Below are positions 4,594-22,702 of a stretch of 55,254 nt of DNA, one piece after another (position 1 is the stretch's first letter; every line of letters starts with the position of its first letter). Under the pieces are notes generated by a model. It saw only the letters and a program-made list of their open reading frames with translations, made no database searches and had not been told where the DNA came from. The translations under genes were made by a program, and so were the position numbers. Origin of the DNA: an uncultured Sangeribacter sp. (GTDB lineage: Bacteria > Bacteroidota > Bacteroidia > Bacteroidales > Muribaculaceae); the NCBI GenBank assembly GCA_964640375.1, contig CAZXGU010000001.1, positions 1-55,254 of the forward strand, written 5' to 3'.

Positions 4594-6237
4594 TTATATA
4601 TTCATGTTTTTTCGATACTGAGCTGGCGTGATTCCGAACACTTTATTAAAGTGACTGTAATAAGTGGCGCGTCGCACATAGCCACATTCCACTGCTATTG
4701 CATCGATGGTCCAATCTGGATGTTCTTGAATAAGCTTCACGGAATATTCCACTCTAAGTTTATTGATATAGTCGTTGGGATTTAGGCCGGTGAATTTATC
4801 AATCAAAGCCACGATTCTGGCTCTTGATAATCCGCAAACCTCAGCAATGCTATCACGGTTGAAATTCTGATCCTTAAACAAATTGTCACTCATCAGAGTG
4901 TGTTGCATCTTTGTGAAAGTCTCAAAATCCTCTTCATTTCCCTCAGAGAAATCAAAATCCATTTTATTCAACTCTAAAAGTTGGTCCACTCTCTTGGCCG
5001 CAATCTTCTGCTGGCGAACACTCGAACGATAAGCCCGCCATAGAATAAGAAGAATTAATATCACCAAGATTCCAATGCCGATTGCAGAAATCATCCAGAT
5101 ATGTTTCTTTTGCAAAGACACTTTCATATTAAGCAGCTCCATTTCCTTCTCATTGAGAGAAAAGAGAGAAGCCATCTCTTGGGTGCGTAAATTATTCTCT
5201 CGTGCTGTCAAACTGTCTTTGATTAATGCAGCTCTTTGCGCCAGAGAATAAGCTTCCCGAAACCTTCCTAATCCTGCTAAGGCCTTAGAATCAGATTCTA
5301 ACAAACTACGGTAATCATCGTTTATTGTATCCCCCTTTGCAAGAATGGGATATAGTGGGGCAGTAAAATCCATTACAGTCTTCCAATTGGAGGAATCAAG
5401 AAGGTAATCCATGATATAAGCTCTACCAATGGGGCTCGATGCATAGTCTGTTGCCATAAATTTATTGTACGCATCTTTGGCTTCATCCCGTTTTCCGGCC
5501 CTTTCTGCGCAAGAAGCAATCCGAGCGTAGGCGTAGGCTCGCTGTTGATCTGTGAAACCTTCCGGCGCACCTCCTAATTTATCAATCCGTTCAATAATAT
5601 CGAGCCGTTTTCTACCTTCTTCCAATCCCTCGTTAAACTTTTCATCCGTATATAGTTCCACTATCTTTACCCCGTAGGCAGCCGATACATTAGCTAATGT
5701 GCGGACGTTTTTAGAATTTGAGCCCTCGGAGATGATTCTGTCCAAGTATTGATATCCTTGTTTGCGATCGCCCATGGCAAATGAAGTTTTACTCATGGTG
5801 GTGAGGATATTGAAAAGGGCAGCTTCATTATTCAATTTGCGAGCTATCTTCATCGCTTCAGTTGACGATGCTATGCTTCCTTGAAAGTTGCCATAATATG
5901 CCTGGGCTGTAGAAAGAAGTGTAAGAGCATTTAATCGCTCCTTATCATGGTGCGAGATAGAATCGTCTGAAAGAACTTCTCGAGCATATTTTTCTACAAG
6001 TGAAAACATCCTCTTCTCATTATATGCCAAACTCCGAAGCAAGGAAATTTTGTAGGAGGGAAGTGATGACTTTTTCTCACTTTCTATTTTATCGAGAATA
6101 AGCAACACGCTATCGGGAGATTCCACCAATAAATTACGAATTTCTTCTTCCGATGCTACCGATCTCCCGACACCTCTCATTCCTGGAATGTGCATGAACA
6201 GAATTATTATCAATATGAGCAGACGAGTTGTTTTCAT
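4594..6237 (-). CDS. Membrane-anchored TPR-sensor AraC-family transcriptional regulator
   Basis: Likely start MKTTRLL (6237) with signal/TM segment, TPR-like helices, second TM (WMISAIGIGILVILILLILW), AraC C-terminus (DYINKLRV...TIDAIAVECGY...FNKVFGITPAQYR). Confidence 0.9.
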   Translation of the reverse strand: MKTTRLLILIIILFMHIPGMRGVGRSVASEEEIRNLLVESPDSVLLILDKIESEKKSSLPSYKISLLRSLAYNEKRMFSLVEKYAREVLSDDSISHHDKERLNALTLLSTAQAYYGNFQGSIASSTEAMKIARKLNNEAALFNILTTMSKTSFAMGDRKQGYQYLDRIISEGSNSKNVRTLANVSAAYGVKIVELYTDEKFNEGLEEGRKRLDIIERIDKLGGAPEGFTDQQRAYAYARIASCAERAGKRDEAKDAYNKFMATDYASSPIGRAYIMDYLLDSSNWKTVMDFTAPLYPILAKGDTINDDYRSLLESDSKALAGLGRFREAYSLAQRAALIKDSLTARENNLRTQEMASLFSLNEKEMELLNMKVSLQKKHIWMISAIGIGILVILILLILWRAYRSSVRQQKIAAKRVDQLLELNKMDFDFSEGNEEDFETFTKMQHTLMSDNLFKDQNFNRDSIAEVCGLSRARIVALIDKFTGLNPNDYINKLRVEYSVKLIQEHPDWTIDAIAVECGYVRRATYYSHFNKVFGITPAQYRKNMNI

Positions 6238-6333
6238 GGCTGCAAAGTTATAAAAAATTACTTTATGAAAACTATTTGTGGGAAGGAAACTAAAATGAGA
6301 GTGAAAGGACATAAATTATTGATACTCACAGAA

Positions 6334-6454
6334 TAGACAAAAAGAGTACAAAAATGAGTACAAACTTTACAGGCATGTACTCATCAAAAAAGGGAAATAA
6401 GTACAAACATTAGGACTTTTAATTTGACTTATCATAAAGTGAAATATAACTTTG
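6334..6454 (+). promoter_or_regulatory. Promoter of the MACPF operon with upstream (A/G)AGTACAAA repeats, probable AraC sites
   Basis: TTTG (6423-6426)-N20-TAACTTTG (6447-6454); gagtacaaa at 6344 and 6356, aagtacaaa at 6399, inverted tgtactc at 6376. Confidence 0.7.
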
Positions 6455-6485: not shown

Positions 6486-7058
6486 ATGGAAACTAACATT
6501 TCTAAATCTATGAGAAAACTTTTGCTTTTCTTCCTTTTGCTGATTCCGATGTTCGGTTTTACAGCTTGCGGCGATGATAATGACGAGCCTGACACTCCCC
6601 CGACGCAAAATCCCACTGTGGTGAAAGTTGCCACGGTGACTGCTCAGTACAAAATTCTTCTCGGTCAAGCATGGTTTGATTTCTTCGATATTGTAGTTAA
6701 CTACACCTCTGTGGGAGGAGATAAAAAGGTGGTTTTGACAGAAGATATGATGGAGAACTTCACGTTGCCCTATTCTGAATCGCCAAATACTTTTATATGC
6801 TCTATTGTGGCCAAACCAAAAAGCACTCATCCAGAGATTAAAGAGAATGGAAAATACAATTTATCCAACGATATAGAGGCCTCAGTTTTTGGGAAAGATG
6901 CTAACGGAACTGAAATAGATGGTTTCGGCTATATGGGTAGCAATTATTCCGTTTTCCCTGAAGCCTCTGCCAAAGAGTTAAAATCTAAAATGGAAAAAGA
7001 ACGCACTCTCCTTAACTTTTCATATACTTTAGAACCCTCCGACATCAGACAGCAGTAA
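6486..7058 (+). CDS. Hypothetical surface lipoprotein, first gene of the MACPF operon (start may be 6510)
   Basis: Lipobox FTAC followed by acidic GDDNDE export-type signal; beta-rich sequence. Confidence 0.8.
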   Translation: METNISKSMRKLLLFFLLLIPMFGFTACGDDNDEPDTPPTQNPTVVKVATVTAQYKILLGQAWFDFFDIVVNYTSVGGDKKVVLTEDMMENFTLPYSESPNTFICSIVAKPKSTHPEIKENGKYNLSNDIEASVFGKDANGTEIDGFGYMGSNYSVFPEASAKELKSKMEKERTLLNFSYTLEPSDIRQQ

Positions 7059-7064
7059 CAAAAA

Positions 7065-8345
7065 ATGAAGAACAAGATAATAATATTGAAGACGGGATTA
7101 TTCCTGTCTTCACTCTCGGTATTGCTTTCCGGATGCCAAGACAACATAAATTCTGAGGAGAGCTCATATAAAACTGTCTTGAATATAGATGCAGCAAGTG
7201 ATACCTACAATCTTAGCCATAATAATAAACAAGGAACTTGGGAACTAACCTCTTATCCTGAGTGGGCCACTCCTGTCGATAGTTGCGGAAATGTCCAAAC
7301 CGACCTGAAGATTTACTTTGAGAGCAACGGAAGAGGCGAGGATCGCTCCGGCGAGTTGGAAATAACCTATAACGATGGCTCAAAACAAAAAGTCCAGGTT
7401 AATCAGAGCCGTGCAAACGAAAGTTTTCATCTTGAAAGAGCCCAAGGTGTGGGGTGGGGAATGGATGTCGGCAGCTACATGGATAGTCGTGGTCTTACCG
7501 ATCAGATTTTCAATACTGAGAAAATACGTGCTTTCAATAAGAATGCTGTCACATATTCCGTGGGCAATAAGCTAAGTATCCTCTACTTTCAGGGAGAAAG
7601 CATTGACAAAGTGCAACAGTCGCTTACTGCTTCCCTAAATCTTAATGTGAAAATCAGTGCATTCGATGCCACTCTTAATGGAGCCTTCGACAAGACGTCA
7701 ATGAAAGATTCGCAACGTTATTTCTCTTGGATGCGAGGCACATTCCAGAAGAAGCAGGTTACGATGCACATTGATGTGACCGATGCTCAACGCAACAATC
7801 TTTTCACCCATGACTTTGCAATTATGCGTCAGCGCGTCATTGATTCTGAAGGGTCAGAGGAGGCGATTCGAGAGCTAATTGAAAGATATGGCACACATTA
7901 TATATGGAACGCCGGGTTGGGAGGATATATTGATTATTTCTATTCCTTTGTTCAAAGCATGGAGTCGGATAAAATGAATATTAAAGCCGCCTTGCAGTGC
8001 AGCTATGAGAAAAAATTCGGTCTAAAGGCCACTGTGGAATATAACACGGCATTTGAGGCTGCAAATTCGGAGAAAATAGAAAAATTCTTTGTGCGCGGAG
8101 GAGATGCAATGACCCTCACAAACTGTGTGGCCTCAGGAAATATCGGAGAACAGCCCGTGACTGCTTGGCAAACTAAACTTGAAAAGGATGATCAATTCGA
8201 ACTTATCACATTCAGTCTAAGAAGCATCTCATCCCTTTTCCCTAACGACGCACCAACAAGAATAGCAACAAAAATTGATGACTACATCTCCAGAGTGCTG
8301 TATTATAATAATCTACCGCTTACTCGATCGGAAAAGAAACGTTAA
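7065..8345 (+). CDS. BACON + MACPF (perforin-like) lipoprotein 1
   Basis: Lipobox LSGC; BACON-like W...PEW..N....RSGEL......V.Q; GVGWGMDV; MACPF signature YGTHYIWNAGLGG; VRGG. Ends right after the MACPF domain. Confidence 0.88.
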   Translation: MKNKIIILKTGLFLSSLSVLLSGCQDNINSEESSYKTVLNIDAASDTYNLSHNNKQGTWELTSYPEWATPVDSCGNVQTDLKIYFESNGRGEDRSGELEITYNDGSKQKVQVNQSRANESFHLERAQGVGWGMDVGSYMDSRGLTDQIFNTEKIRAFNKNAVTYSVGNKLSILYFQGESIDKVQQSLTASLNLNVKISAFDATLNGAFDKTSMKDSQRYFSWMRGTFQKKQVTMHIDVTDAQRNNLFTHDFAIMRQRVIDSEGSEEAIRELIERYGTHYIWNAGLGGYIDYFYSFVQSMESDKMNIKAALQCSYEKKFGLKATVEYNTAFEAANSEKIEKFFVRGGDAMTLTNCVASGNIGEQPVTAWQTKLEKDDQFELITFSLRSISSLFPNDAPTRIATKIDDYISRVLYYNNLPLTRSEKKR

Positions 8346-8356
8346 ACCTTTAAGAA

Positions 8357-10606
8357 ATGAAAATAAAACTAACCAATATATTAGCCATCATTTCCTTTAC
8401 CATGCTTGCCTTGGGCTGTAAGGATGATATAACTCCGTCGGGAGGGGAACAAGTGACAGATAAGTTGACCGAACAAATCGGTCATTTAGCTGCCTATCAT
8501 AATCTGAGTGTTCCTGGAAGCAAGGGATGGAAAATTGAAGAGACTCCTCTCTGGGCCACTCCTGTAAATAAAGAGGGAGCTGCCGGCTCTCAAATCCGAA
8601 TGTTGATTGAATCAAATATCAATGATTCCGACCGTGAAGGCTGTCTGAAAGTCAGATTAGCCGATAATTCTCTGATAGAATATAATCTTCATCAATACTC
8701 ACGCTTATCCGACGATAACAATGCCAGAGTTAATGAAGAGTATCTTGAGTTGACTCGGGGAGTGGGCTATGCAATTGATGTATTTGGACAAACCGAATTT
8801 GGCACGGAAAAATATGATATGAAATATGAGGTGGTTAATGTTGAGAAGCTTAACCATTACCTCGATTCCATAGGTGAGCCGGATGCCTTCATAGATGAAG
8901 ACCGTTATTATTCAGAATCCAATAGTTTTGTGGGTTCTTCAATTTCAGCGGTTGCTAATAAAATCTCAGTATCAGCTGGCATAGAGGGAGAAATAGGGGC
9001 ATTTAAGGGTTCGTTAAGTGGGTCGTTTGAAGACTCGAGCACAGTCAACGATACTACCGGTTATGCTCTTAAAGAGATAAAACATGTGGTTGGCTCGCGT
9101 TATCTAAGAGCCGGAGTCCTACGCGAGGCATTGGCCAACGGAGGAAAAGATATTTTTACTTCAGATTTCATTTCTAAAGTGGAAGCTATGGGCGACAATC
9201 CTCAGATTGAAGACCTCCGCAGTTTTGTAAATCTTTTCGGCACTCACATCATCGTTTACGGGGAAATAGGAGGTGCCATGCAGTTGGCACTCGAAATGCA
9301 CAGCACCCGGAAGATTTCGGAAAGAGACATTTCAGCAGCTCTTGAAATCACGGCTGGAAAGGCCGTTAGCGGTGGTGCAAATGTTGATATAAAAGATCAG
9401 ACACAGCATTTTGCAAGTTCTTCAAAAATCTCATTCTGTAGTTTTGGGGGCAACAACATAATTGACCCCATATACCCAGGCACCGATTTTAACACTGCCA
9501 TGCAGAATGTGATTACAGCCGAAAACCTTTCTCATTTTGTTGACGGACTCTCTACTAAAGAGAATGCCAAAGTGGTAGATGTTAAACTGATACCGCTCTC
9601 ATCGTTAATTGCCAATGAAAACACAGCCAAGCGGTTGCATGAATATATTGTTAATGACTATCAATTTGAGAAGACAGGAAATCATTCGTTGAAATATGCC
9701 GTGTCAGGCTTCTCAACTCAAGACAACTATTGTGGTTCGCTCTATCTTCCGGAGATTGATGTTAGAATGGAATATTATAGAGAGTCGGTGCCTGAAATTT
9801 CATCCGATAGCCGTTCCACTATTGTCTATTCAGGCACAGGTTATGGCATGAGTTATGATGTTGGCTTCTTCTTAGGTGACGGAAAGCATAAACCGGGAAA
9901 GCTTAGAAAGCAGAGGAATGGTTCCTTCAAGTATGAGCCTCTGGATATCAGTCTTAACCAGATATCAACGCTCTATGTGGATGCTTCCGGCGATTTAACC
10001 CTTGCTCCGTCGGGATATGCTTCAGATTATATTAATAAGAAGTTTGAAAGCCATCCCATGCCTCCTTCAACAGATATTTCCCCTGCACACACTTTAAAAG
10101 AGCTTAGTGAATTTTCTCCTGAGGGATATGATATAAGCGCTCGCACACTCGACCATAATAAATGGTCCTATTTCCCGGCTTTAATGAGGATAGTTGGCCG
10201 AACAGCCGATTATCAGTCAAACAAAGAGATAGTTGATTTTATTAAGACCGGCAAAGCGTGGATTAATATGGAGCTCGAGGGTTTTAGCTGGTTGCAGGGA
10301 GATCCTGAATTTACTGCATACTATTTCAATCGCAACAACTCTGAATGTGGAATCGGGTCTGCATCGATGCCACAGAATTGTGAGGAATTTATGGATAAAA
10401 ATATTATCTATAAGAATGGTAAACTTACCTTGAGATTTCTTATACCTGCCGGAGCCACTTCAATGGCAATGGAGATATTCCCTTATCTCAGTCAGCGTGG
10501 GTGGGGAGATAAGTTTGCAAAAGATAAGAATGGAAATGAAATATGGCCTTCGATGTATCTTACCTATGAAGATGGAGTCAAAGGCGTAACACCACGGTGG
10601 CGATGA
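8357..10606 (+). CDS. BACON + MACPF lipoprotein 2 with roughly 300-aa C-terminal extension
   Basis: Lipobox ALGC; BACON-like segment; GVGYAIDV; FGTHIIVYGEIGG; SFGG; long extra C-terminal region. Confidence 0.88.
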   Translation: MKIKLTNILAIISFTMLALGCKDDITPSGGEQVTDKLTEQIGHLAAYHNLSVPGSKGWKIEETPLWATPVNKEGAAGSQIRMLIESNINDSDREGCLKVRLADNSLIEYNLHQYSRLSDDNNARVNEEYLELTRGVGYAIDVFGQTEFGTEKYDMKYEVVNVEKLNHYLDSIGEPDAFIDEDRYYSESNSFVGSSISAVANKISVSAGIEGEIGAFKGSLSGSFEDSSTVNDTTGYALKEIKHVVGSRYLRAGVLREALANGGKDIFTSDFISKVEAMGDNPQIEDLRSFVNLFGTHIIVYGEIGGAMQLALEMHSTRKISERDISAALEITAGKAVSGGANVDIKDQTQHFASSSKISFCSFGGNNIIDPIYPGTDFNTAMQNVITAENLSHFVDGLSTKENAKVVDVKLIPLSSLIANENTAKRLHEYIVNDYQFEKTGNHSLKYAVSGFSTQDNYCGSLYLPEIDVRMEYYRESVPEISSDSRSTIVYSGTGYGMSYDVGFFLGDGKHKPGKLRKQRNGSFKYEPLDISLNQISTLYVDASGDLTLAPSGYASDYINKKFESHPMPPSTDISPAHTLKELSEFSPEGYDISARTLDHNKWSYFPALMRIVGRTADYQSNKEIVDFIKTGKAWINMELEGFSWLQGDPEFTAYYFNRNNSECGIGSASMPQNCEEFMDKNIIYKNGKLTLRFLIPAGATSMAMEIFPYLSQRGWGDKFAKDKNGNEIWPSMYLTYEDGVKGVTPRWR

Positions 10607-11892
10607 ATAAATATCTGTTTATAATTTTTTCACTACTTTCTATATTTATCTCGGCGTGTGAGAAAGAATCTCACACGCCGGGATTCTCAACTTCTCTTCC
10701 TTCTTATTTAGAGTTGGATGCCAGTTGTCAGGTTTTGGAGATACCCTTGGGAGGAATTGGGAATTGGAGGGCATCAACAGATTGCAAATGGCTCACCGGA
10801 ATAGACACCTTGGGCAAAGAAGGGGAGTCGTGTAGAATATACATCGAGCAAAATGATGGTCCCGCTCTTAGAAAAGGCAAAATGACAGTTTATCCCGAAA
10901 AAGGTGAAGCGGTTGACATATTTTTGGATCAACTCCCCATTGATAGCAATGGATGGGAAGATGTGGTCAAACTCCCGCATAATTTCGGAATAGGTTGGGG
11001 ATATGATGCCAAGACCGAGGTGGCGGATATTTCTGGAGTTAGAGGGCAGATATTTAATGCAGAGGAACTGAAGAAAGTATATAAAAATAATAAAGCATCA
11101 GTTGCCCTAAACAGCACCGGAGTTTCTCAGGAGCTTATCTATGATAATTCAGCAGAAGCAATCTCAAAGAAAATCAGCACAACAGTTTATGGTGAAATTG
11201 ATCTTAAAGCTGCCTCCGTTAAAATAGAAGGAGAGTATGCTCAGCAAATTTCGGAAAAAAAGAATCGCCTGTATGTATGGTATCGCGACTGGCGTCAAGT
11301 GAAAGTTTGCTACATCACCGTTGATATCCGTGATAAAAACAGAGCTCCTCAATGCTTCACCTCCCAATTCTCTAAATGTATTTCAGACGTAGCCAATGGC
11401 AAGATGACTCCGGCTGAATTTGTAAAAACGTATGGCACTCATTTAATCCAACGCTCTTTCTTGGGTGGAAAAATGGATTATTATTTCACAGTTAGCAACG
11501 ACATTAAGGAGAAGGTTGAGACCATCACTCTTACTGTATCGGTAAAATTTTTAGGGATTAAAAAGTCTTCCTCCAGTGTAAAGGAAAACACGTGGATTGA
11601 TATTAAGAAAGACTTTATAGGTAATTTCTATGTGAAAGGAGGAGGCGGTGTTGGTGCTGATGTTTCGGCCTTATTCGCTTTCTATTGCAATCGAGGAGAG
11701 GCGTTGCCAGAAATATACAGCGGAAAAATTGAGGAATGGCAGAAAGTCTTTTCTAATCCAAATTTAGTTAATCCGGAAGATCTCACGCTTGTTAACTTTT
11801 ATGTTCAACCTATATGGGATATAGTTAAGATGCAAGAATCAGAGGCGGCAGAAAAGATAGAGAAGTATATCAGAGAGGAATATTTGAGATGA
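10603..11892 (+). CDS. BACON + MACPF lipoprotein 3
   Basis: ATG 10603 overlaps the upstream stop (ATGA); lipobox ISAC; BACON-like; GIGWGYDA; YGTHLIQRSFLGG; VKGG. Ends after the MACPF domain. Confidence 0.88.
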   Translation: MNKYLFIIFSLLSIFISACEKESHTPGFSTSLPSYLELDASCQVLEIPLGGIGNWRASTDCKWLTGIDTLGKEGESCRIYIEQNDGPALRKGKMTVYPEKGEAVDIFLDQLPIDSNGWEDVVKLPHNFGIGWGYDAKTEVADISGVRGQIFNAEELKKVYKNNKASVALNSTGVSQELIYDNSAEAISKKISTTVYGEIDLKAASVKIEGEYAQQISEKKNRLYVWYRDWRQVKVCYITVDIRDKNRAPQCFTSQFSKCISDVANGKMTPAEFVKTYGTHLIQRSFLGGKMDYYFTVSNDIKEKVETITLTVSVKFLGIKKSSSSVKENTWIDIKKDFIGNFYVKGGGGVGADVSALFAFYCNRGEALPEIYSGKIEEWQKVFSNPNLVNPEDLTLVNFYVQPIWDIVKMQESEAAEKIEKYIREEYLR

Positions 11893-12905
11893 GTTTTTTT
11901 GTGCGAAAGATATTTAATCTAATCTTAATTTTTATCCTACTATTTACAGGCGGATGTTCTGATAATGACCCCGCGCAGTCAACAATTGCCACGAATAAAA
12001 AAGTTATTCTTGTCAGTCCTATTGGAGGATTTGGAGATGCCGGATATAATGACTTGATTATGCGAGGGGTTATGCAGGCTTACAAATCTGCTGGATTCCA
12101 ATTATCAATAATATATCCCTCCGAAGAGGAGGAGGTAAGGAGGTTGATAGAAGAATTTTGCGTTGTGGAAGTTGACTCTCCCCATCTCCTTTTCTTGGCC
12201 GACAGTAATTATAGCGTTTTTTTACCACGTCATTGTTCCTTGCCTGAAAATAAAAAAATACTTGTGTCGGATGTTTCAAGAGAAAATGTGCCGGAAGGAA
12301 TCACATCTTTCAGCATTAGCAGAGCCGGAGTGTATTACCTTGCGGGTCGAATGGCTTCTCCTCATTGTAGCGCAACTATCATAGCCGCTATGCCGGGCGA
12401 TCAACGTCTTGAAGAGGCTATTAGCTCTTTTCAGGAAGGATTCGGGAAGGAGGTGGAGGTGGTCTATTTAGACGAGGATGAGAAAGGGTATAACTCCCCC
12501 GAAAAAGCATATAAGAAGATGGGGGAAATTGATAATTCTTTCGTTATCCCTCTTGCAGGAGGGTCAAACAACGGCATTTATAAATACTCTCGTGAACAAG
12601 ATTTCTGGCTCTCCTTAGTCGCCGGTGCAGATATAGATTGCCAAAAACTGAGCCCAAGGGTACCGTTCTCAGTTGTGATTCATATTGACCGGATAGTAAA
12701 AGATCTGTTAATGGAATGGATAAGTAGCGGTTTTAGAGAGTCGCATTATACTTTTGGGCTGACCAATTCAGGAACGGAGATAATCATTAGTGATGTTTTT
12801 TCAACTTGGTCTAACATCTGGGAGGATTATTATCTTGAAAATGATTATTGGGAGGAAGCGAAATATAAGTATTTTGACGAAGCTATTAGAAAAGATTTAC
12901 TATGA
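11889..12905 (+). CDS. BMP-family (type I periplasmic-binding fold) lipoprotein
   Basis: Lipobox TGGC; GGFGDAGYNDLIMRG; YLAG; PLAGGSNNGI; GADID motifs typical of BMP/PnrA-like proteins; ATGA overlap. Confidence 0.8.
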   Translation: MSFFVRKIFNLILIFILLFTGGCSDNDPAQSTIATNKKVILVSPIGGFGDAGYNDLIMRGVMQAYKSAGFQLSIIYPSEEEEVRRLIEEFCVVEVDSPHLLFLADSNYSVFLPRHCSLPENKKILVSDVSRENVPEGITSFSISRAGVYYLAGRMASPHCSATIIAAMPGDQRLEEAISSFQEGFGKEVEVVYLDEDEKGYNSPEKAYKKMGEIDNSFVIPLAGGSNNGIYKYSREQDFWLSLVAGADIDCQKLSPRVPFSVVIHIDRIVKDLLMEWISSGFRESHYTFGLTNSGTEIIISDVFSTWSNIWEDYYLENDYWEEAKYKYFDEAIRKDLL

Positions 12906-15007
12906 AATTCAAATTTATACTTTTGATATCACTATCATTCCTGTTAATATGTTCCTGCACAGACACTATTCCGGAAGATAAAGGTTCGAATGGGAAAAGC
13001 GTTTGCCTGGCAGTTGTTCTTCCGGGAGGAGAAGAGAAATGGGGGGACGTAGTGAACTGGTGTGTATCAAATCTCCGAAATTCGGGAGATACAGAATTAA
13101 GATTTCCAAGGATTGAGATCGAATGGAAAGATGAAAATGACAGTGATTTAGATGATTATCTTTATTCAGTTTCCCGAAATAATGATATAGATGCCATTAT
13201 CGGGCCATTCTCATCCACAAATGCTCGAAAAGGAGCGGAAGAATGTCGGCGCAGTGGGAAACCGATTCTCCTTCCGATGGCTACATCAGTAGAAGTGCAG
13301 CGACTCTATGCCGGATATGATAATATATGGAATCTTGTTGAAAGCGACTTAACACAGTGTGAGCTATTAATGCTGCAAGCCCGTCTTTATGGGAAAAAAG
13401 AGGTTAGTCTTTTGTCGTGTGACACTGATTATGGGAAAAGTTTCAGCGATTGGTTTTATTATTTAGCTGCGGAGGCCGGAATGAAAGTAGGGGAGATGCT
13501 CACTTATTCTAATGAGGGTGAGCTTCGCAATGACATAGATAAACTAATTGAGGATAACGGGCACTATAACAATGCTCTCATTTTTGTTCCAGACTCTGAT
13601 TCGGATTGTCTTATATTCGCCGACGAATATGAAAATATTGTAAACAAGAATCCAAAAAAGGAATTTCCTCAAGTGTTATGCTCGGATAATATGTTCAACC
13701 CTTCTCTGGTAGAAAAGATGGGAATGAGAAGTTATGAAGGTCTTGCTCCTTCCTCTGTTCCCGAATCCGGGTTTAATGAGGCTTACTATTCTCGTTTTGG
13801 AAGGTACCCAGTGCCCGGGGAAGCCCATGTTTATGATGCCATTCTAATGACAGTATACGCTTTCTTTTATGCCGGTATTAATCAATCCTCACTTAGAGAT
13901 GCCTTACATTCCATAACTTCCGGTAATGAAAAATGGAATTTGAGTTGGCTCCCCGACGATATGACTCTTGCTTTGCGCGAAATTGCCAGAGGCAAAAGAT
14001 TAAATCTTGGAGGAGTGACAGGCGACTGGACTTTCGATAGAAACAATAAGACCAGTGTTTTAAACACCACCTACTGTCATTGGCTCTATTCAAAAGGGGA
14101 ATACAGTATATTAGAATACCTTTCTACTGATGGAGGAGTAAGAACTACCTCCCAAACACAGGTATGGGAAAGAAAAAATTCTGAATTGCAGGAATTAGAC
14201 ACCTCTTCTGTTGAGATTGATTACCCTGCAAAAGAAAATAATTGGGCTTTGGTTATTTCAACTTCTGACGACTGGGCGAATTATCGTCATCAGGCAGATG
14301 CTCTTTCAATTTATCAACTCCTGAAAAAGAGGGGTTTCGACGATGACCATATCCTTTATGTCAGTGAAGATAATATTGCGAATAATCCGGCAAATCTATA
14401 TCCGGGAACGGTGAAGGTGCGCCCCGATGGAGAAAATCTTTATTGGAATGTGAAAGTGGATTATCATTTGAGCCAACTAAAAGTTACCGATTTGGAGAGT
14501 TTGTTGACAGGAAAGAGAAGCATAGATTTTCCGGAAGTAATTGAAAGCGGAGAGAACGACAATATTTTTATCTATTGGTGTGGACATGGAATGAGCAATT
14601 CCTTAGCTTGGGGCGAGAAACTGATGAGCAGTCAATATTTGGCTTATCTTTTTCGAAAGATGAGCGAACAAAAACAGTTCAGAAAGATCTTCTTTGCATT
14701 AGACGCATGTTATAGTGGAACTATAGGTCGAGCATGCGAGGGGATACCAGAAATTTTGGTGATGACAGCTGCCAATCCTTTTGAACCATCCAAGGCTGAC
14801 ATGAAGGATCCTGAGATGGGAATTTGGCTCTCAAACGGATTCACTCGCGCTTTTGAGGAGACACTATCCGAAACTACTGATATTTCTATTCACGATCTTT
14901 ACCATATTCTGGCAAGACATACTGTTGGAAGCCATGTAATGCTCTATAATTATGTAAAATTCGGGAATATGTATGAAAATCGAATGAGTGAATTCTTTCC
15001 CGATTGA
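12902..15007 (+). CDS. Lipoprotein: type I (LIVBP-like) binding domain fused to a C13 (legumain/GPI8-like) peptidase
   Basis: Lipobox ICSC; AIIGPFSS, DYGKSF and YDA motifs; then NWALVISTS..WANYRHQAD, NIFIYWCGHG (His) and LDACYSG (Cys). Confidence 0.9.
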   Translation: MKFKFILLISLSFLLICSCTDTIPEDKGSNGKSVCLAVVLPGGEEKWGDVVNWCVSNLRNSGDTELRFPRIEIEWKDENDSDLDDYLYSVSRNNDIDAIIGPFSSTNARKGAEECRRSGKPILLPMATSVEVQRLYAGYDNIWNLVESDLTQCELLMLQARLYGKKEVSLLSCDTDYGKSFSDWFYYLAAEAGMKVGEMLTYSNEGELRNDIDKLIEDNGHYNNALIFVPDSDSDCLIFADEYENIVNKNPKKEFPQVLCSDNMFNPSLVEKMGMRSYEGLAPSSVPESGFNEAYYSRFGRYPVPGEAHVYDAILMTVYAFFYAGINQSSLRDALHSITSGNEKWNLSWLPDDMTLALREIARGKRLNLGGVTGDWTFDRNNKTSVLNTTYCHWLYSKGEYSILEYLSTDGGVRTTSQTQVWERKNSELQELDTSSVEIDYPAKENNWALVISTSDDWANYRHQADALSIYQLLKKRGFDDDHILYVSEDNIANNPANLYPGTVKVRPDGENLYWNVKVDYHLSQLKVTDLESLLTGKRSIDFPEVIESGENDNIFIYWCGHGMSNSLAWGEKLMSSQYLAYLFRKMSEQKQFRKIFFALDACYSGTIGRACEGIPEILVMTAANPFEPSKADMKDPEMGIWLSNGFTRAFEETLSETTDISIHDLYHILARHTVGSHVMLYNYVKFGNMYENRMSEFFPD

Positions 15008-15321: not shown

Positions 15322-18300
15322 ATGACTAGACACTTTAGTTGGATCGCGATCTCCTCAGTTATTTTGGGATCATCCATCTACTCCTTCTCAGAGAAGGTCA
15401 CACTCAACGAAGCTCAATCGTTAGCTACTGAGTTTGTAAAAGCAAAAACCGGCAATCAGAATGCCGAAGTTTCGCTCAAGCCTGTATTCACAGCCGGCAC
15501 AGAGTCTAACCCCCTCTATTACGTATTCAACTTAGCCAATAATTCTGGCTTTGTAATGGTATCAGGGGAGAACACGACATCACCCGTGCTTGGATATTCT
15601 TTCGAGGGTGCATATCCTGTGAAGAATATGCCCGACGGAATGAAATGGATGCTCTCAGGTATTGAGCGTGAAATCAAGAATGCGCCTTCAGTTTCAAGCA
15701 CAATGGCGGTAAGCGACCTTCGAAAGGTTGCTCGCAAGTCGGCCGAAAAGGCAGACAAAAAAGAGCTTAACACTCCGAGTTGGAGTCAGGAAGGTCCCTT
15801 CAATGCCATGATTCCTGGTCAGCCTCTTGTTGGTTGTGTCGGAACAGCTATGGCAACAATAATGAAATATTATAACTATCCGGCAGCCGGAACAGGCTCT
15901 TTCGACGGAGTTGATTTCGCAACATCCTACGACTGGGATAATATGCGTATGGACAACTACCGCTCGGGTTATAGCCAGACAGAGGCTGATGCCGTTGCTA
16001 CTCTAATGTATCATGCATCTAAGAGTATCGCCACTCAATACGCCATGTCAGGGTCGAGCGCTTACGAGGTTCGCGTGCCAGGCGCTCTTTCCACATATTT
16101 CGGATACGATCCCGGAGTTTCATATAAAAAACGTTCTGAAGTGGCTTCTCAGCAGGCATGGGATAAACTGGTAAAAGATGAAATCGACGCCGGTCGCCCC
16201 GTTCTCTACTGCGGACAAGATGTAACGGCAGGTCACGCATTCGTTTGTGACGGTTACGATGGAGAATTTCTTCATTTCAACTGGGGATGGGGTGGTTCAG
16301 CCAACGGTTACTTCCGCAGCACAGCTCTCAATCCTACAGTAAGCCGCCAGCACTTCTACAATAACCTGAACACTATTATTTATAATATCAAGCCTTCGAG
16401 CGGCACGATGACTGCTTGGTCGCCAATCCATATCACAGCCGATGGTAATCAGGTCGGTATGGGCGCCAACTTCACAAGTCTTGCATCAGGTGAAACTTTC
16501 TCAGTAAGAGTAGGAAACCTTAAGAACGTTACTCACGACGATTTTGCCGGTAAAATCGCTGTAGCTCTCTGCGATGCCAACGGTAGAATGAAAGCTCTGC
16601 TCAATTCGCCTTCAAATTTCACAATGCAGTCAATGGGTTATCTTTTCGACGGTTACATGACTTTCTCCAATTGCAAGCTTACTGCCGGAACTTCAGTTGC
16701 AGATTCCGACCGCGTAAGAATCGTGACTCAGGCGAATGGTCAGACAGAATGGCTCCCGGTTGCCGGTGAACTCCTCACAATCAACGAGCTAAATCCTTCC
16801 GGCAGCAGCGCGAAGATGTTTAACGTCAACTTCCCCTCGGGATTAGCAGGCGTAACAGTAGAAGGTTCAGCAAATGTAATTCCCGGTTGGGATTACACCT
16901 TCAAGGTTGTTCCAGGCAATCCAGTTGAAGATGTAGTGACTGTAAAAGCCAACGGCGTCACTCTCATAGCCTCCGGCAATAGCTACTCTATAAAGAACGT
17001 GCGCGAGGATCAGAACATCAGCATCCTTGTTCAAAAAGCAGCCGACGTAAAAGAGAAACGTTCAATCTGGGTAGGAACTCCCGGAACACTTTCCTCAATT
17101 ATACCGGAGTCGGAGACAGGAACTATTAAAGATCTCACTCTCTTCGGCACAATCGATGCTCGTGACTTCACATTCATGAGAAATTCAATGAATCTCACTC
17201 GTCTTGACATCTCAGGCGTAAACATCACAGCCAATGGTAACGATCAAGCAAATGCAATTCCCCGCGAGGCTTTCCGTGGAAAAGGAGCTTTGAAAGAGGT
17301 TGTGTTGCCCTCATCAGTGAATCGTCTTAACAACGGATGTTTCCGCCAGTGTGGAATCACTTCAATTTCTATCCCCGGAAATGTAAATAAATATGAATAT
17401 AACATCTTCGTTGGTTGCACCGCTCTACGTGACATCTATGTGGGTCGTACAAACGCTGAATTTATCAACTGGTGTGTGCTTTCAGGTGTTAAGACCGACC
17501 TTGTAACCCTCCATGTTCCCAATCAGGCGGCAGTAAACAATTACAGCAAGGCAGAAAACTGGAACACCATTTCCAATATCATCGTTGATTCTCCTGTGGC
17601 AAGCAACAACGTTCTCTTTGCGGTTCAGGAAAATAACGAAGTTAAATTTGAAACTGCTTCAGAGACAGGTTCTTTGCAGAAAGGTTCGGTTGTTTCATTC
17701 AAGGCTTCTCACATCGCCGACAACGACAACAAGATGGAGGTTTATGCCAACAACACTCGCCTTGTTCCCAATGCCGAAGGCCTCTACAATGTTACCCTCG
17801 CCAACAACACCATTATCCACTTCGAGCTAACTTCTCCCATGGCAGTTGATTCTCAGAAATCAACTTGGACTCTCACTGCTAAGAACGGTTCAATCGGTAT
17901 GTTCTCAGATGCTGTGAATGTGATTCCCCGACAAGAGTTCACAATCCGTCTTAACGCCCTCAACATACCCGCCGGTTACGATCAGGCATATTGGGGAGCC
18001 GCTCTCACAGACGCAGCTGGCAATATCAAGGAATTTATCTCTCCGGTGAATGTTTGGTCGGCAGGACCCGGCGATAGCCACAAGCTTAATGTGGTTTGCA
18101 AGGTGAACGATTCTAATGTTCGCGAAGGCAACCAGATTCGTATCGTTACCTCTTTCAATAAGAAAAACTGGAACGTTGTGAAGGGTGCTAATGCAGAGAT
18201 CGTAGATGCGCTTCCGGCTCTCAACAACATGACTCCGGTCTATAACATCAATGTTCCCTCGGTTGATAATGCCTCGGTTTCAGGTGTGACTTCAACAGCG

Positions 18301-21240
18301 GTTCGCGGTCGCGACCTCACCCTCAAGATTGTTCCCAACTCGGCAGCATATCGCGTGGATCTTGCAGTGAATGGAGTGACTGTTCTTCAGAACCAGCCCA
18401 CAGTAAACTATCCCTTCGTAGCAATGGAGGATATGAACTTCGATGTTAAGGTTTATGATCCTAAAGCAGAAGGCAGTGTAACCTTCAATGTTCAACCTGG
18501 AGAATTATACAAGGCCGTAACGGCAGAGTCTGTAGCAGCTCACGTAATTGTTACAGGGGAAGTTTATAGCCAGGATTTGTCGAATGCTTTCCGCCAGCCT
18601 TTTGCAGCTCGAACAATCAAGAAACTTGACCTTTCAGGAGTTAAGATTGTTGCAAATGTATTAACACCGACATTAGACACTGATAAGTATGCCGACTTTA
18701 TCCCCTCCAACCTCATTTATAATCCCAGTGCAACTTCTTCTGTAATGCCAATAGTAGAGGAGATAATTCTTCCCAACTCCGTTACAAGAATTGCAGATGG
18801 TGCTTTCCAGAATTGTGCAAACCTTAAGGAAATCACTCTTCCATTAAGTCTTGGCACTGATAAAGTTGAAGTTGGAAGATATGCATCAGGTTCCATTAAA
18901 TATGGTTATCCATTAGGAGCCCAGGTATTTAAAGGATGTTCCTCATTAACCACGATATATATCCCCGGAACTCCTTCCACAGTCGGTGGACGCCTTGTAG
19001 TCAGTCATTTCAATCCAGCAGCCTCTGCAAGTCCTGCCATCTACATGGATCCTGATTTATCTTCCTACGATCTTGGTTTTAGAAATCCAGAAACCAATAA
19101 GCCTGACGGTTCAAAAGTAACTGTAGTTGTTCCCCAGGAATATCTAACAGTATATCAGACTGCCTACGCTAACACTAATAATGGTAACCCTTGGAAAGCT
19201 CATGGCTACAACATCCTCTCCGAGAATCCAGTATATGGTGTAGAATTCGATCCTACACACGTAAAGGTTGCTGAAGGCACAGACGTTACAGCAATGGCTT
19301 CATTCCTCGGCGACAATGTTTCTCTCGAAACTATCTCCACTGAAGGAAAGCTGATGCTCACCAATCCCCAGGCAAACTGCAAGGTCTATGACAACGATGA
19401 AGAAATCCAGCTCGCAGCCGACGGTTCAATCCCCGTTATCTTCCACAACCCTGCGAAGAATGCTGCCAAGGCCGGTAACCATGAGATTAAGGTGGTTTAT
19501 ACCTACGATGTAAACTTCGCCTCCACTTCTCCTATCTTCAAAGTTTCTGCTGAAGAGATTCCAGGAGCAACATTCACCAGCAGTGACGACCATAATCATT
19601 CACTCAAAGGTGTGGCTGAAAACTCCGAAGTGAGATTCAAAGTGGAAATGGCCACTGAGCTTAGCGAAGGTCTTGAGGCACGCGTAATGTCGGGCAACGA
19701 AGAACTCGCAGCAGATGCCAACGGTTTCTACACCATCTCAATCGCGAATGCAAGCAAGAGCATCGACATCTTCGCAGTTCCCGGTGAAGGCGCAACTCTC
19801 AACTCCGATGATCTCGCTGCAATCAAGCCCGAAGAGGCTCAGGCCGTGACTTCAATCTCTCTCGACGGCGAAATGACCTCCGACGATCTCAGCAACGTTA
19901 AGGATTACTTCCCCAACCTTGAGTCGCTCGACCTTTCCACTCTCAAAGGTGATCTTCCTGAAGGTGCTTTCGCCGGAATGGAAAACCTCACCACAGTGGT
20001 TCTTCCTGAAGAAGTTTCAGAGGTTAGTGCAAATATGTTCAGCGGATGTGGCTCGCTCCAGAGCGTTGATATCCCTGCCACAGTAAGCTCAATCGGTGAA
20101 GGAGCATTCAAAGACTGCACATCGCTCGAAAAGATCACTCTTACAGGCGTATCATCAATTGGTGACGGAGCCTTCGAAGGATGCGATAACCTGACCACCA
20201 TCACTCTCCTGGCCTCCTCGGCAGATCCTAAGAGCGAAGCTCGCCGCAAGGTTCAGAGAAAAGCCGGTGCTCTCAGTTCAAAGGCATTCAACGGTGTGAA
20301 CCCCAACTGTATCATCGTTCTCGATCAGGGTGTTGAGATGCCCTCAGCAGCAGCCAACTATCTTCTCACTTCAACTGGAAATGTGACCGAAGTTGGTCTC
20401 GACGGAACAGAAACCACTCGCGAAGGTCGTGTTTACAGCGCAAGCAGCGACATCAACTTCATCCAAGGATATCCATTGGCAATTCCTCACTCCTTCACTC
20501 TCACCGACGGAGCAGTGGTATCTCTTGAAGCTGAAACCAACGATTGGACTGCAACTGTGGTGCCCTTCGATGTTGAAACTATCACCGATGCAGCGAACAA
20601 TGACATGGCAGTTACTCTCGCAGAAGATGGAGCAGAATATGCAGATGGAAATCTCATCTACACCCTTCCTGAAGGTGGCGAGTCTCTCCAGAGTGTAGAA
20701 ACGATGAAGGCTAATGTGCCCTACATCATCCGCACTGTAAACAATGGCAAGACTATCTTTGCAGCCTCCGATATCACAGTGCCCGCCACTCCTTCTGAGA
20801 TCCGCGTTGACGGTAAAGACTTCTCCCTCAATGCCACTCTCGCAGCTCGCACTCTCCCCGCAGAGGATACTTACCTTCTCGACCACTCAGCTTCAGCTTT
20901 CGTTCCTGCAGAGGCCGACGAGGATAGCGAAAATGTGGAAGTTGCTCCCTTTACAATCTATGCAACTTCACCAGCTAAGGTTAGCGAAATTATAACCAAT
21001 CTCCCTGGCACAACCTACATACCCACAGGTATCAACAACACTGAGATGGTTGTTTCAGAATTCAAAGTGGTGAAGGAAGGAAACGCATTGGTGGTTTATT
21101 CTCCTGAGAATCGCTCAGAGACTATCTTTAAAGCTGATGGCAGCGCAGTTCGCACAATCAACTTCAAAGCCGGACGCAACGTAGTGAATCTCCCCTCAGC
21201 AGGAATCTACATCATTGCTAACACTAAGGTGATTCTCTAA
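15322..21240 (+). CDS. C10 (streptopain/SpeB-like) cysteine protease with propeptide, three BspA-type LRR blocks and T9SS C-terminus
   Basis: Prodomain YYVFN..GFVMVSG..VLGYS; WSQEGPFN, GCVGTAMA (Cys), GHAFVCDGY (His), HFNWGWGG; LRR_5 repeats; terminal GIYIIANTKVIL. Confidence 0.92.
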   Translation: MTRHFSWIAISSVILGSSIYSFSEKVTLNEAQSLATEFVKAKTGNQNAEVSLKPVFTAGTESNPLYYVFNLANNSGFVMVSGENTTSPVLGYSFEGAYPVKNMPDGMKWMLSGIEREIKNAPSVSSTMAVSDLRKVARKSAEKADKKELNTPSWSQEGPFNAMIPGQPLVGCVGTAMATIMKYYNYPAAGTGSFDGVDFATSYDWDNMRMDNYRSGYSQTEADAVATLMYHASKSIATQYAMSGSSAYEVRVPGALSTYFGYDPGVSYKKRSEVASQQAWDKLVKDEIDAGRPVLYCGQDVTAGHAFVCDGYDGEFLHFNWGWGGSANGYFRSTALNPTVSRQHFYNNLNTIIYNIKPSSGTMTAWSPIHITADGNQVGMGANFTSLASGETFSVRVGNLKNVTHDDFAGKIAVALCDANGRMKALLNSPSNFTMQSMGYLFDGYMTFSNCKLTAGTSVADSDRVRIVTQANGQTEWLPVAGELLTINELNPSGSSAKMFNVNFPSGLAGVTVEGSANVIPGWDYTFKVVPGNPVEDVVTVKANGVTLIASGNSYSIKNVREDQNISILVQKAADVKEKRSIWVGTPGTLSSIIPESETGTIKDLTLFGTIDARDFTFMRNSMNLTRLDISGVNITANGNDQANAIPREAFRGKGALKEVVLPSSVNRLNNGCFRQCGITSISIPGNVNKYEYNIFVGCTALRDIYVGRTNAEFINWCVLSGVKTDLVTLHVPNQAAVNNYSKAENWNTISNIIVDSPVASNNVLFAVQENNEVKFETASETGSLQKGSVVSFKASHIADNDNKMEVYANNTRLVPNAEGLYNVTLANNTIIHFELTSPMAVDSQKSTWTLTAKNGSIGMFSDAVNVIPRQEFTIRLNALNIPAGYDQAYWGAALTDAAGNIKEFISPVNVWSAGPGDSHKLNVVCKVNDSNVREGNQIRIVTSFNKKNWNVVKGANAEIVDALPALNNMTPVYNINVPSVDNASVSGVTSTAVRGRDLTLKIVPNSAAYRVDLAVNGVTVLQNQPTVNYPFVAMEDMNFDVKVYDPKAEGSVTFNVQPGELYKAVTAESVAAHVIVTGEVYSQDLSNAFRQPFAARTIKKLDLSGVKIVANVLTPTLDTDKYADFIPSNLIYNPSATSSVMPIVEEIILPNSVTRIADGAFQNCANLKEITLPLSLGTDKVEVGRYASGSIKYGYPLGAQVFKGCSSLTTIYIPGTPSTVGGRLVVSHFNPAASASPAIYMDPDLSSYDLGFRNPETNKPDGSKVTVVVPQEYLTVYQTAYANTNNGNPWKAHGYNILSENPVYGVEFDPTHVKVAEGTDVTAMASFLGDNVSLETISTEGKLMLTNPQANCKVYDNDEEIQLAADGSIPVIFHNPAKNAAKAGNHEIKVVYTYDVNFASTSPIFKVSAEEIPGATFTSSDDHNHSLKGVAENSEVRFKVEMATELSEGLEARVMSGNEELAADANGFYTISIANASKSIDIFAVPGEGATLNSDDLAAIKPEEAQAVTSISLDGEMTSDDLSNVKDYFPNLESLDLSTLKGDLPEGAFAGMENLTTVVLPEEVSEVSANMFSGCGSLQSVDIPATVSSIGEGAFKDCTSLEKITLTGVSSIGDGAFEGCDNLTTITLLASSADPKSEARRKVQRKAGALSSKAFNGVNPNCIIVLDQGVEMPSAAANYLLTSTGNVTEVGLDGTETTREGRVYSASSDINFIQGYPLAIPHSFTLTDGAVVSLEAETNDWTATVVPFDVETITDAANNDMAVTLAEDGAEYADGNLIYTLPEGGESLQSVETMKANVPYIIRTVNNGKTIFAASDITVPATPSEIRVDGKDFSLNATLAARTLPAEDTYLLDHSASAFVPAEADEDSENVEVAPFTIYATSPAKVSEIITNLPGTTYIPTGINNTEMVVSEFKVVKEGNALVVYSPENRSETIFKADGSAVRTINFKAGRNVVNLPSAGIYIIANTKVIL

Positions 21241-21400: not shown

Positions 21401-22702
21401 CTACAAAATAACTTTCTTTGTTTTACCATTCATTTTCACGATGAAAACACCCGCAGAAGGATTCTTCACCTCGCGTCCGTTGAGATCGAAATAAACCGGG
21501 CAGCTATCTATCTCATCGGAGCTTTCCACTTTCTCTATTCCTGAGGGACGGTTAACGGTTGTGGTGTATTGGAGCAGATTCTTTTTATCCACAAAATATC
21601 GGATGCCAACGCTGTTCTCCGTGATATGATATCCCGGGCTTACTAAGGGAATGGAATTTCCGGTTGAAGGTTCAAAGAGAGTGATAAAAGAAATTCCATC
21701 TATTTTATCGACCGCTGTGAAATAATCAGGAGTGGAAGTCTCCTTTATCTCCACAACATCAGAAAGCGGTTGGATTAAAGCCTGGGAAGCGAGAGATTCC
21801 GGTTTATTAGTTTCACTTCCTGTGGCTATATAATTTTTAATATCGGCTGTTAATTCCTCCTTGCAATAGATCTCTTTCAGGGCTTTGTTGCGTAAAAGTT
21901 TGGATGAATCGCAAAAATCCATGAAGTTAGAGTTGAGGATGAATACACGTTCCAATGCCAAACCTGAAAAGACATCAGTGCCCATCTCGACTACGCTTTC
22001 TGGAATAACAATCTCCTTCAGGCCCGGTAAGAAAGCAAAAGCCATGTTGCCAATTGAAGTCAAGTCGGGGCCAAGGGTTATCTGAGTGAAGGGACCAGCG
22101 TTGCAAAATGCCACATTTCCTATCTGACGTAGTTTCTCACCTCCAGTGAACTCTGCAAGCTCGCTACATTCGTAAAAAGCTCCGGCATAGATATATTGGA
22201 TTTCCGGCATATTCACTTTCTTTATTCCCGAATAATCGAAAGCGTAATCAACAACAGTTTTACATTTCGGGAGATTGATTTCTGCAAGCGAACGGGTTTT
22301 GTAGAAAGCGTATGACCCTACAAGCTCCACGCTTCCCGGCTTTGCCTCTGTAAAGGTCTTAAGCTTGGTGCATCCTTGGAAAGAATAGCTTGGAATAGTG
22401 GTGATTGAGCCGTTGACAGTAACGGAAGTAAGGTCCGTGCAATCCTGAAAACCACGTTGCTTTATAGCCATGGGTTCGTAAACAGTTCCATCTACAGTGT
22501 AAGAGTCAGCAATGTTTAGAGCCCCGGTGGGTAAAGCATCTGGATTGGCATAGACTGTTACGAAAGCGTGGTTGTTAACCACAGCAAACACCTCTCCGAG
22601 CATATTGTCGGTAAGATTCACCACATCGCCGTTGGCAACCTGTGCTGTTGAGGGAAGTGCTGACAAAGCTGCAGCAACGAATAGCAGTAAGTTTTTCTTC
22701 AT
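21401..22702 (-). CDS. BspA-like LRR_5 surface protein, T9SS cargo
   Basis: Signal peptide MKKNLLLFVAAAL; I...AF..C..L..I.IP repeats; C-terminal YFDLNGREV...GVFIVK..KKVIL. Confidence 0.88.
   Translation of the reverse strand: MKKNLLLFVAAALSALPSTAQVANGDVVNLTDNMLGEVFAVVNNHAFVTVYANPDALPTGALNIADSYTVDGTVYEPMAIKQRGFQDCTDLTSVTVNGSITTIPSYSFQGCTKLKTFTEAKPGSVELVGSYAFYKTRSLAEINLPKCKTVVDYAFDYSGIKKVNMPEIQYIYAGAFYECSELAEFTGGEKLRQIGNVAFCNAGPFTQITLGPDLTSIGNMAFAFLPGLKEIVIPESVVEMGTDVFSGLALERVFILNSNFMDFCDSSKLLRNKALKEIYCKEELTADIKNYIATGSETNKPESLASQALIQPLSDVVEIKETSTPDYFTAVDKIDGISFITLFEPSTGNSIPLVSPGYHITENSVGIRYFVDKKNLLQYTTTVNRPSGIEKVESSDEIDSCPVYFDLNGREVKNPSAGVFIVKMNGKTKKVIL

Follow-up and report, generated by a model that had tools for sequence, protein, structure and literature searches.

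A Bacteroidales lipoprotein operon encoding three BACON-MACPF proteins and a legumain-like protease with a Venus-flytrap domain

The window studied here, a 55,254 nt stretch of contig CAZXGU010000001.1 (assembly GCA_964640375.1) from an uncultured Sangeribacter sp. of the Muribaculaceae, contains at 6486..15007 a cluster of six + strand lipoprotein open reading frames (ORFs) of gut-type Bacteroidales, g1 to g6, separated by gaps of 6 and 11 nt and then joined by three 4 nt ATGA overlaps. All six encoded proteins have a signal peptide with a terminal Cys followed by acidic residues. An earlier, sequence-only reading had described the same co-oriented layout, and both the ORFs and the signal peptides bear it out. 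The last gene encodes a relative of legumain, for which two of the three MACPF proteins are candidate substrates. The genes are as follows:

6486..7058, + strand: g1, 190 aa lipoprotein of an unnamed family
7065..8345, + strand: g2, 426 aa BACON-MACPF lipoprotein, without a C-terminal domain and without the conserved Asn linker
8357..10606, + strand: g3, 749 aa BACON-MACPF lipoprotein with a C-terminal region
10603..11892, + strand: g4, 429 aa BACON-MACPF lipoprotein without a C-terminal domain (start taken as the ATG at 10603; the ORF finder gives a GTG at 10597)
11889..12905, + strand: g5, BMP/PnrA-like binding lipoprotein, the near-constant partner of the protease
12902..15007, + strand: g6, lipoprotein joining a Venus-flytrap domain (like LIV-BP and class C G protein-coupled receptors) to a legumain catalytic domain

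The MACPF domain (PF01823) lies above the Pfam cut-off in g2, g3 and g4 (1.2e-10, 5.6e-9 and 1.1e-9 respectively), and all three proteins carry the [YF]GTH-x7-GG motif that the sequence-only reading ascribed to them; the BACON domains it also assigned to each reach the Pfam cut-off in g2 only, those of g3 and g4 being detected with a profile built from related loci. Among orthologues, that of g4 at locus L011 exceeds the Pfam BACON cut-off and those of g3 fall below it. Identity is 22-24% between the paralogues and 32-43% between orthologues; the orthologues of g2, g3 and g4 form one separate clade each, with support of 99-100, and the gene order g2-g3-g4 is constant in four distinct loci.

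An AlphaFold2 model of g2 (pLDDT 87.5, from an 89-row alignment) comprises a BACON domain and the canonical four-stranded MACPF core, with helical insertions at the two transmembrane hairpin regions, TMH1 and TMH2. The model resembles Mpf2Ba1, Plu-MACPF, GNIP1Aa and Bth-MACPF (Foldseek matches 8b6v, 2qp2, 6fbm and 3kk7). The sequence-only reading depended on TMH regions, and both are present, at 39-40 aa, in all of g2, g3 and g4. Those of g2 are:

7596..7715, + strand: TMH1, 40 aa, helical insertion in the model, alternation z 2.7
7953-8072, + strand: TMH2, helical insertion in the model, alternation z 1.8

Measured against shuffled sequences, the hydrophobic alternation of TMH1 has z scores of 2.7, 2.8 and 1.6 in g2, g3 and g4, and that of TMH2 scores of 1.8, 1.4 and 0.6; control helices range from -2.0 to 0.7, and the pattern is clear for TMH1 of g2 and g3. 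The last ~200 aa of g3 vary between orthologues and gave no useful PDB match; by analogy with the large subunit of the CDCL toxins, g3 is a candidate receptor-binding platform. The acidic residues after the Cys suggest that the cluster proteins are located at the cell surface. None of the cluster proteins matched the CDC-family domain PF01289 at E 0.1 or reached the cut-offs of the NCBIfam models BSAP5a, BSAP5b and BSAP-5i, g3 scoring 20.8 bits against 500 and g2 and g4 giving no match.

The description of g6 as a fusion of a binding domain to a C13 peptidase with intact His and Cys is upheld by Pfam, which places Peptidase_C13 at residues 447-689 (1e-49) and ANF_receptor at 71-231, and by the alignment of 45 relatives:

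14585-14587, + strand: His562 of g6, catalytic, in 45/45 relatives
14708-14710, + strand: Cys603 of g6, catalytic, in 45/45 relatives

The profile of the g6 family scores similarly against legumain (1.5e-55), GPI8 (8e-53) and the Asn ligases (4e-47). With legumain, the asparaginyl endopeptidases and GPI8 (MEROPS C13) g6 shares the fold, the His-Cys dyad and three of the four S1 residues, described for legumain as R44/H45/S216/D231 (PMC4357240): R462 and S630 are found in 45/45 relatives and H463 in 44/45. Its model, which fits human legumain with a root mean square deviation of 1.9 A, consists of a flytrap, a low-confidence linker and the catalytic domain. Unlike legumain and GPI8, g6 is a bacterial lipoprotein with an N-terminal Venus-flytrap, a BMP partner protein and no C-terminal prodomain. 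Judging by the linker motifs described below, g6 probably cuts after Asn.

For the N-terminal domain of g6, the matches are mGluR1 and binding proteins for branched-chain amino acids (4gnr, 2.6e-11). The positions that we take to be the amino-acid-binding residues of mGluR1 are largely kept among the 45 relatives (S105 in 42, T128 in 39, D149 in 45, Y177 in 44 and D262 in 43). Tentatively, g6 may be controlled by ligand binding to its flytrap and to the BMP domain, in place of the absent prodomain. The g5 protein itself has no Pfam match at the cut-off; its identification as a BMP-type binding protein holds through the family profile, which matches BMP/PnrA structures (7x0r, 8e-15; 2fqw, 3.5e-11), and the orthologue at locus L020 is above the Pfam Bmp cut-off. 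A search among longer proteins found no BMP-C13 fusion, which is weak evidence. A BMP/PnrA importer of the ATP-binding cassette (ABC) type was considered and rejected, since the operon has the binding protein without a permease or an ATPase; the ORF list and Pfam agree with the sequence-only reading that neither is encoded within the cluster.

Among the collected sequences, the family of g1 is found at C13 loci only. In seven of 19 distinct sequences, [WF]G[GDL]N precedes a short, variable C-terminal tail, a tail that the g1 of the window lacks, and an Atlas search returned unnamed Bacteroidota clusters only (top 0.87). We do not favour a role for g1 in immunity to the MACPFs, as the family also occurs at MACPF-less loci and has no BSAP-5i match.

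Asparagine and arginine sites

The MACPF proteins at C13 loci have an Asn in the acidic linker after the last BACON Gln, ~9-17 residues ahead of the first strand of the MACPF domain, and this Asn is kept while the length of the linker and the neighbouring residues vary. The candidate sites in the window are:

8708..8725, + strand: linker S118-D-D-N-N-A123 of g3, predicted cleavage after Asn121 or Asn122
10939..10953, + strand: linker I113-D-S-N-G117 of g4, predicted cleavage after Asn116
8313..8330, + strand: C-terminal Thr-Arg motif (T420-R421) of g2, in a low-confidence tail of the model

Linkers were scored as positive if they had an Asn, not before Pro, within 15 aa of the BACON end and with an acidic residue among the preceding three. 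This was the case for 35 of the 43 MACPF linkers at C13 loci (the eight misses being four g2-type, one Ser-Arg type and three with Asn but no close acid) and for 6/6 non-MACPF BACON proteins, of one family, at such loci. Control BACON linkers elsewhere were positive in 8/55 terminal and 6/47 tandem cases, and the terminal linkers of BACON-MACPFs with no C13 gene in the fetched stretch in 2/4. Of two later sets, one gave 6/8 positive linkers in three new trios and the other 21 positives among 30 single-BACON MACPFs, which were taken without gene context and included some rows close to earlier ones; the nine misses comprised seven g2-type, one Ser-Arg type and one with Asn but no close acid. The corresponding controls were positive in 1/16 multi-BACON MACPFs and in 30/127 and 158/1432 other linkers, the representative search having been dominated by multi-BACON proteins and used mainly as a control set. 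The linker Asn of g4 homologues is followed by Gly or Ser in 12/12 further sequences, as read by eye.

Most trios combine two Asn-type subunits with one that has [TS]R and not Asn. In this odd subunit, and in several MACPFs without C13, [TS]R occupies the place of the Asn site; its position within the Arg-type subunit is N-terminal in a ~650 aa type and C-terminal in the g2 type. The C-terminal Thr-Arg of g2, present in 14/14 full-length homologues and in 7/8 g2-type proteins of another set, is a candidate site for an Arg-specific C11 protease; the Ser-Arg at 115-116 of g2 is not conserved in orthologues. The idea put forward by the sequence-only reading, that the C13 protease releases or activates the subunits, fits g3 and g4, whose Asn falls at the place of the activating cut in BSAP-1 and the CDCLs, and needs correction for g2, which lacks the Asn site and has a Thr-Arg motif.

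In a further group of MACPFs, 5-16 BACON repeats are present and the MACPF domain is preceded by Asn-Pro or Asp-Pro (L083/L115, L118, P0040, P0061, P0086 and others). These proteins are possibly permanently tethered and stalk-mounted, and the two genomes encoding them that were checked had no C13 match.

Distribution of the protease and its payloads

Relatives of g6 and MACPF genes occur together in several families, as the sequence-only reading anticipated. The counts that follow include kin that are not independent and were compared without a statistical test, and those from single-protein searches are lower bounds, a further locus of genome G220 (L066) having been missed. Of 401 genomes sampled from the family, 27 have a g6 relative, 24 a MACPF and 13 both, with the MACPF adjoining the protease in 11 of these 13. 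A sample of 401 genomes from the order gave 6 and 20 respectively, with three adjacent cases including the window, whilst 169 genomes around G816 gave 21 and 14, with both in five, all adjacent (two being the seed loci). The protease was near none of the non-BACON MACPF loci in either the family sample (0/12) or a Bacteroidaceae sample (0/9).

Pooling the loci yielded 69 distinct flytrap-C13 proteins, 66 of which have a BMP gene within 1.5 kb. MACPF genes are near 26 of the 69, in 17 cases as a set of at least three, in one as a pair and in eight singly (the raw script count of 18 sets is corrected for L009, which has two genes, one read in two pieces); the other 43 have none nearby, some of their loci being short contigs or cut by contig ends. 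The layout of the window recurs in L011, L012 and L019, one locus of the sampled family has the arrangement seen in a record from an uncultured Muribaculum (L044 and L020), and genes of the g2 or g4 type are not found alone except at contig ends. Mapped onto the protease tree, the payload label changes 12 times, at least nine of them on well-supported branches. The fixed core is the pair of BMP and C13 genes, with the MACPF genes as a swappable payload. The interpretation of the sequence-only reading is supported in part: each MACPF subunit has its own clade, but the stable unit is the BMP-C13 pair.

MACPF-less C13 loci encode other lipoproteins that have the same layout of carrier, Asn and payload. 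The g1 family, with its seven members that bear a tail after the Asn, is one such carrier. An unnamed carrier family of ~110 aa has a terminal Asn in 39/40 distinct copies; none was found in genome G000 or in the fetched loci without C13, a biased comparison as the loci were mostly chosen for C13. Lipoproteins of ~730-790 aa encoded upstream of BMP and C13 genes (L152:6153-8441 on the - strand, L153, L154:1609-3810 on the + strand, L155, L159 and L165) form a ~750 aa non-MACPF payload family with an Ig-like start, a junction Asn in 5/5 aligned members and, after this junction, a domain of alternating strands around a hydrophobic helical insert. The family has no Pfam, NCBIfam or useful PDB match, and only unnamed Bacteroidota clusters in the Atlas; our guess is that it is a new payload, possibly membrane-active.

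Smaller carriers at L020/L044, L042, L050, L052, L057 and L167 end in Asn plus short variable tails, often Cys-rich, which are candidate released peptides. Lipase-like lipoproteins (PF03583 matches) follow the C13 gene at L060-L063, L156 and L166. In the rumen loci L001-L007 (e.g. L001:1888-8006) the flytrap-C13 gene lacks a BMP partner and neighbours genes for a lipoprotein sulfatase, a carrier-type lipoprotein and a sulfatase-maturase-like protein. A flytrap-C13 gene without BMP also lies directly after conjugative-transposon tra-like genes (L030:5864-12728), which suggests mobility, and the C13 fusion gene of L038 (G076:C11:68511-70577), a locus without MACPF genes, has one in-frame stop. 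An 8-Mb genome has about seven MACPF-like genes in 25 kb with neither BACON nor C13 nearby (L116-L117, G425:C4:689000-723000).

Proposed mechanism and its rivals

Our proposal is that g6 would cut g3 and g4 after the conserved linker Asn, and that these, freed from their lipid anchors, would assemble, probably with g2, into a multi-subunit beta-barrel pore aimed most likely at competing bacteria. We hold the chances of this reading as a whole to be even. Of its parts, the cut at Asn is likely, a hetero-oligomeric pore is marginally favoured, and bacteria are, by a similarly slight preference, the expected target; an Arg-specific C11 protease may act as a second key on the Thr-Arg subunit. More generally, the BMP-C13 pair would be a release module and the MACPF trio one set of payloads. 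It is a rather speculative extension that the pair is a ligand-gated surface sheddase making Asn cuts on at least three unrelated lipid-anchored carriers, and is loaded here with a two-key MACPF trio, its own Asn protease serving two subunits and C11 the third.

Multi-subunit, protease-activated pore toxins are already known in Bacteroidota. BSAP-1 to BSAP-4 are likewise MACPF lipoproteins with an activating and releasing cut just N-terminal of the MACPF domain and a C-terminal domain that is likely to bind the receptor. BSAP-1, as described in a preprint (bioRxiv 10.64898/2026.08.05.742979), is cut at R38 by fragipain, a C11 protease of the target, with R38N abolishing killing, and alone forms a 13-subunit pore; its receptor is reported to be bound by the C-terminal domain (PMC12853789). 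It thus differs from the cluster in being a single protein with an Arg site and a target-cell protease, whereas the cluster has three paralogues, a BACON tether, a co-encoded C13 protease and, in g3 and g4, Asn at the place of the BSAP-type N-terminal Arg site. The sequence-only reading had contrasted the cluster with BSAPs acting as single proteins; this is correct for BSAP-1 as such, yet the BSAPs are not a clean contrast, because BSAP-1 needs cleavage at R38 and NCBIfam holds models named BSAP5a (NF053771), BSAP5b (NF053772) and BSAP-5i (NF053773). Judged from these names, BSAP-5 would seem to be a pore-forming toxin of Bacteroidales encoded by two genes, with MACPF in one subunit; a literature search for it found no relevant paper. 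Loci of this kind differ from the cluster in having a MACPF without BACON, a Ser-Arg site and no C13. Pairs of BSAP5b-like and BSAP5a genes lacking C13 are present in the sampled family (L070:6162-10649, L076:8185-11207 and L077:6331-10854), followed in L070 and L077 by a third lipoprotein with a weak match of leucine-rich repeat (LRR) type.

The CDCL two- and three-component toxins are analogous in gene layout: adjacent lipoprotein genes encode a large, platform subunit and small subunits, triplet members fall on separate branches, and activation follows Thr-Arg, C11 proteases cutting after TR62 and TR70 (PMC11169675). They belong to the PF01289 family and have an immunity lipoprotein in B. 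fragilis, and the available text of that source describes no dedicated protease, whereas the cluster has the MACPF fold (PF01823) and an Asn site in two of three subunits. The Bth-MACPF cluster BT_3433-BT_3442 has two MACPF lipoprotein paralogues in a putative lipoprotein operon, for which the accessible part of PMC2954219 names neither BACON nor a C13 protease; Bth-MACPF (PDB 3kk7) shares the fold of g2 (Foldseek 1.3e-12), and PF01650 had no match in the B. thetaiotaomicron control genome.

No MACPF-C13 operon or flytrap-legumain fusion was found described in the literature searched, which lacks most subscription papers; this accords with the sequence-only reading's statement that it knew of no functional description of the combination; nor were a dedicated Asn protease with ligand-binding domains, mixed Asn and Arg sites, a shared carrier-payload layout or a bacterial legumain substrate with its sites assigned to residues. 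The pore toxins known from Bacteroidales rely on an Arg-specific C11 protease that has housekeeping duties, whereas the cluster suggests an activator of its own, specific for Asn and equipped with ligand-binding domains, by which the producer could choose the time of toxin release. The mechanism of BACON-bearing BSAPs and of those without a C-terminal domain is listed as unknown, as is the role of BACON, in the available text of PMC12853789. On our proposal BACON would be a cleavable tether, and MACPFs lacking the C-terminal domain could find their target as partners of the large subunit. Searches for the Asn junction may also bring to light further released payloads in bacteria of the gut and rumen.

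Several observations weigh against this proposal. The Asn rule was defined after the first test set had been seen, and two of its false positives are Arg-type or g2-type subunits. At the position equivalent to D231 of legumain, 38 of the 45 relatives have Asn and the other 7 have Asp, and the specificity of g6 may therefore differ from that of legumain. The g4 family as a whole shows weak alternation in TMH2 (mean z 0.40, 16 rows), and in neither g3 nor g4, taken singly, is it significant. The eight single-MACPF loci mean that the trio is not obligatory for the clade. Genome G020, at 99% completeness, encodes a same-clade MACPF that bears the linker Asn, yet gave no C13 match, and no immunity gene was identified. 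All of the C13-linked MACPFs are on one side of a single branch (support 85), hence the linker Asn may be one inherited trait, an objection best answered by the carriers, which are separate folds. Finally, multi-BACON MACPFs keep an Asn near the linker place, as Asn-Pro in 12/16, which fits a structural role.

Among the rival explanations, an unlikely one retains release at Asn and treats the three MACPFs as separate homo-oligomeric, BSAP-like toxins with different targets. The single-MACPF loci with the same BMP-C13 pair, the frequent payload swaps on the protease tree and the ability of BSAP-1 to form a pore alone are in its favour, but g2 and g4 lack the C-terminal domain, the receptor-binding part of BSAP-1, the order and orthology of the trio are constant, most trios pair two Asn-type subunits with one Arg-type, and no complete locus has g2 or g4 only. 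GPI8 and plant Asn ligases are transpeptidases, and their profile scores close to that of legumain would also suit a C13 protein acting as transpeptidase or maturase of a non-lytic surface structure, the MACPFs forming a coat, an adhesin or a ring for uptake on the producing cell. With this would agree the other payloads (sulfatase, lipase-like proteins and short Cys-rich tails), the chance that g2 stays tethered, and the non-lytic roles proposed for Bth-MACPF by Xu et al. (PMC2954219); we consider it quite unlikely nonetheless, as the two hairpin regions have been preserved with matching lengths, TMH1 shows beta-alternation, and the cut site coincides with the activation site of the lytic BSAP-1 and CDCLs.

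Still less probable is a structural role for the linker Asn, with g5 and g6 making up a peptidase that has binding domains and scavenges nutrients, and with the MACPFs as passengers in a variable lipoprotein cassette. This could account for the 43 C13 fusions with no MACPF nearby, the amino-acid-binding residues retained in the flytrap, the Asn-Pro of multi-BACON MACPFs and the MACPF without protease in G020; it is at odds with the three unrelated carrier folds that end in Asn at C13 loci, the persistence of Asn despite variation around it, the lack of an encoded transporter and the absence of the protease near non-BACON MACPF loci in both samples. Least probable of all is that the same release and assembly are aimed at eukaryotic membranes, whether of host cells, gut protists or fungi: among solved structures, Mpf2Ba1, Plu-MACPF and GNIP1Aa are nearer than Bth-MACPF, and no immunity gene was identified, but an identity of 17-18% to these three proteins does not give a target, and the characterised Bacteroidota MACPF and CDCL lipoproteins are reported to kill bacteria (bioRxiv 10.64898/2026.08.05.742979, PMC11169675, PMC13245386).

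Genomic setting

The genome, 82.6% complete, has no MACPF matches other than g2, g3 and g4, one strong C13 match, and one C11 gene, outside the cluster. The GC content of the cluster is 41.0%, against 44.2% for the genome. Upstream of g1 lie the following:

4594..6312, - strand: AraC-type regulator with TPR-like and membrane segments (Pfam HTH_18, 1.6e-14), divergent from the operon
6447..6454, + strand: TAnnTTTG pattern match, without a chance control
6250, - strand: second TAnnTTTG pattern match, toward the regulator, without a chance control
6344, 6356, 6377 (inverted) and 6400: GAGTAC-type repeats, pattern matches without a chance control

We take TAnnTTTG to be the -7 promoter element of Bacteroidota. 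The AraC-type gene is a candidate regulator of the operon; of 89 loci, near-copies among them, 24 have a gene of this type no more than 12 kb from the C13 gene. Scans of the stretch for sigma-70 promoters (30 against 23.2 +/- 5.1) and terminators (9 against 7.2 +/- 2.8) were at chance level.

A replaced receptor gene of the BSAP type, for an outer-membrane protein or a glycosyltransferase, was sought among the direct neighbours of the cluster, which are the AraC-type gene and a C10 protease gene. The C10 gene was left out of the cluster because it is 314 nt away and was not seen downstream of the protease at other MACPF loci. It lies on the + strand (15322-21240) and encodes a 1972 aa streptopain-like protease with a Spi inhibitor domain and BspA-type LRRs, and is followed on the - strand by genes for two LRR proteins (21401-24920).

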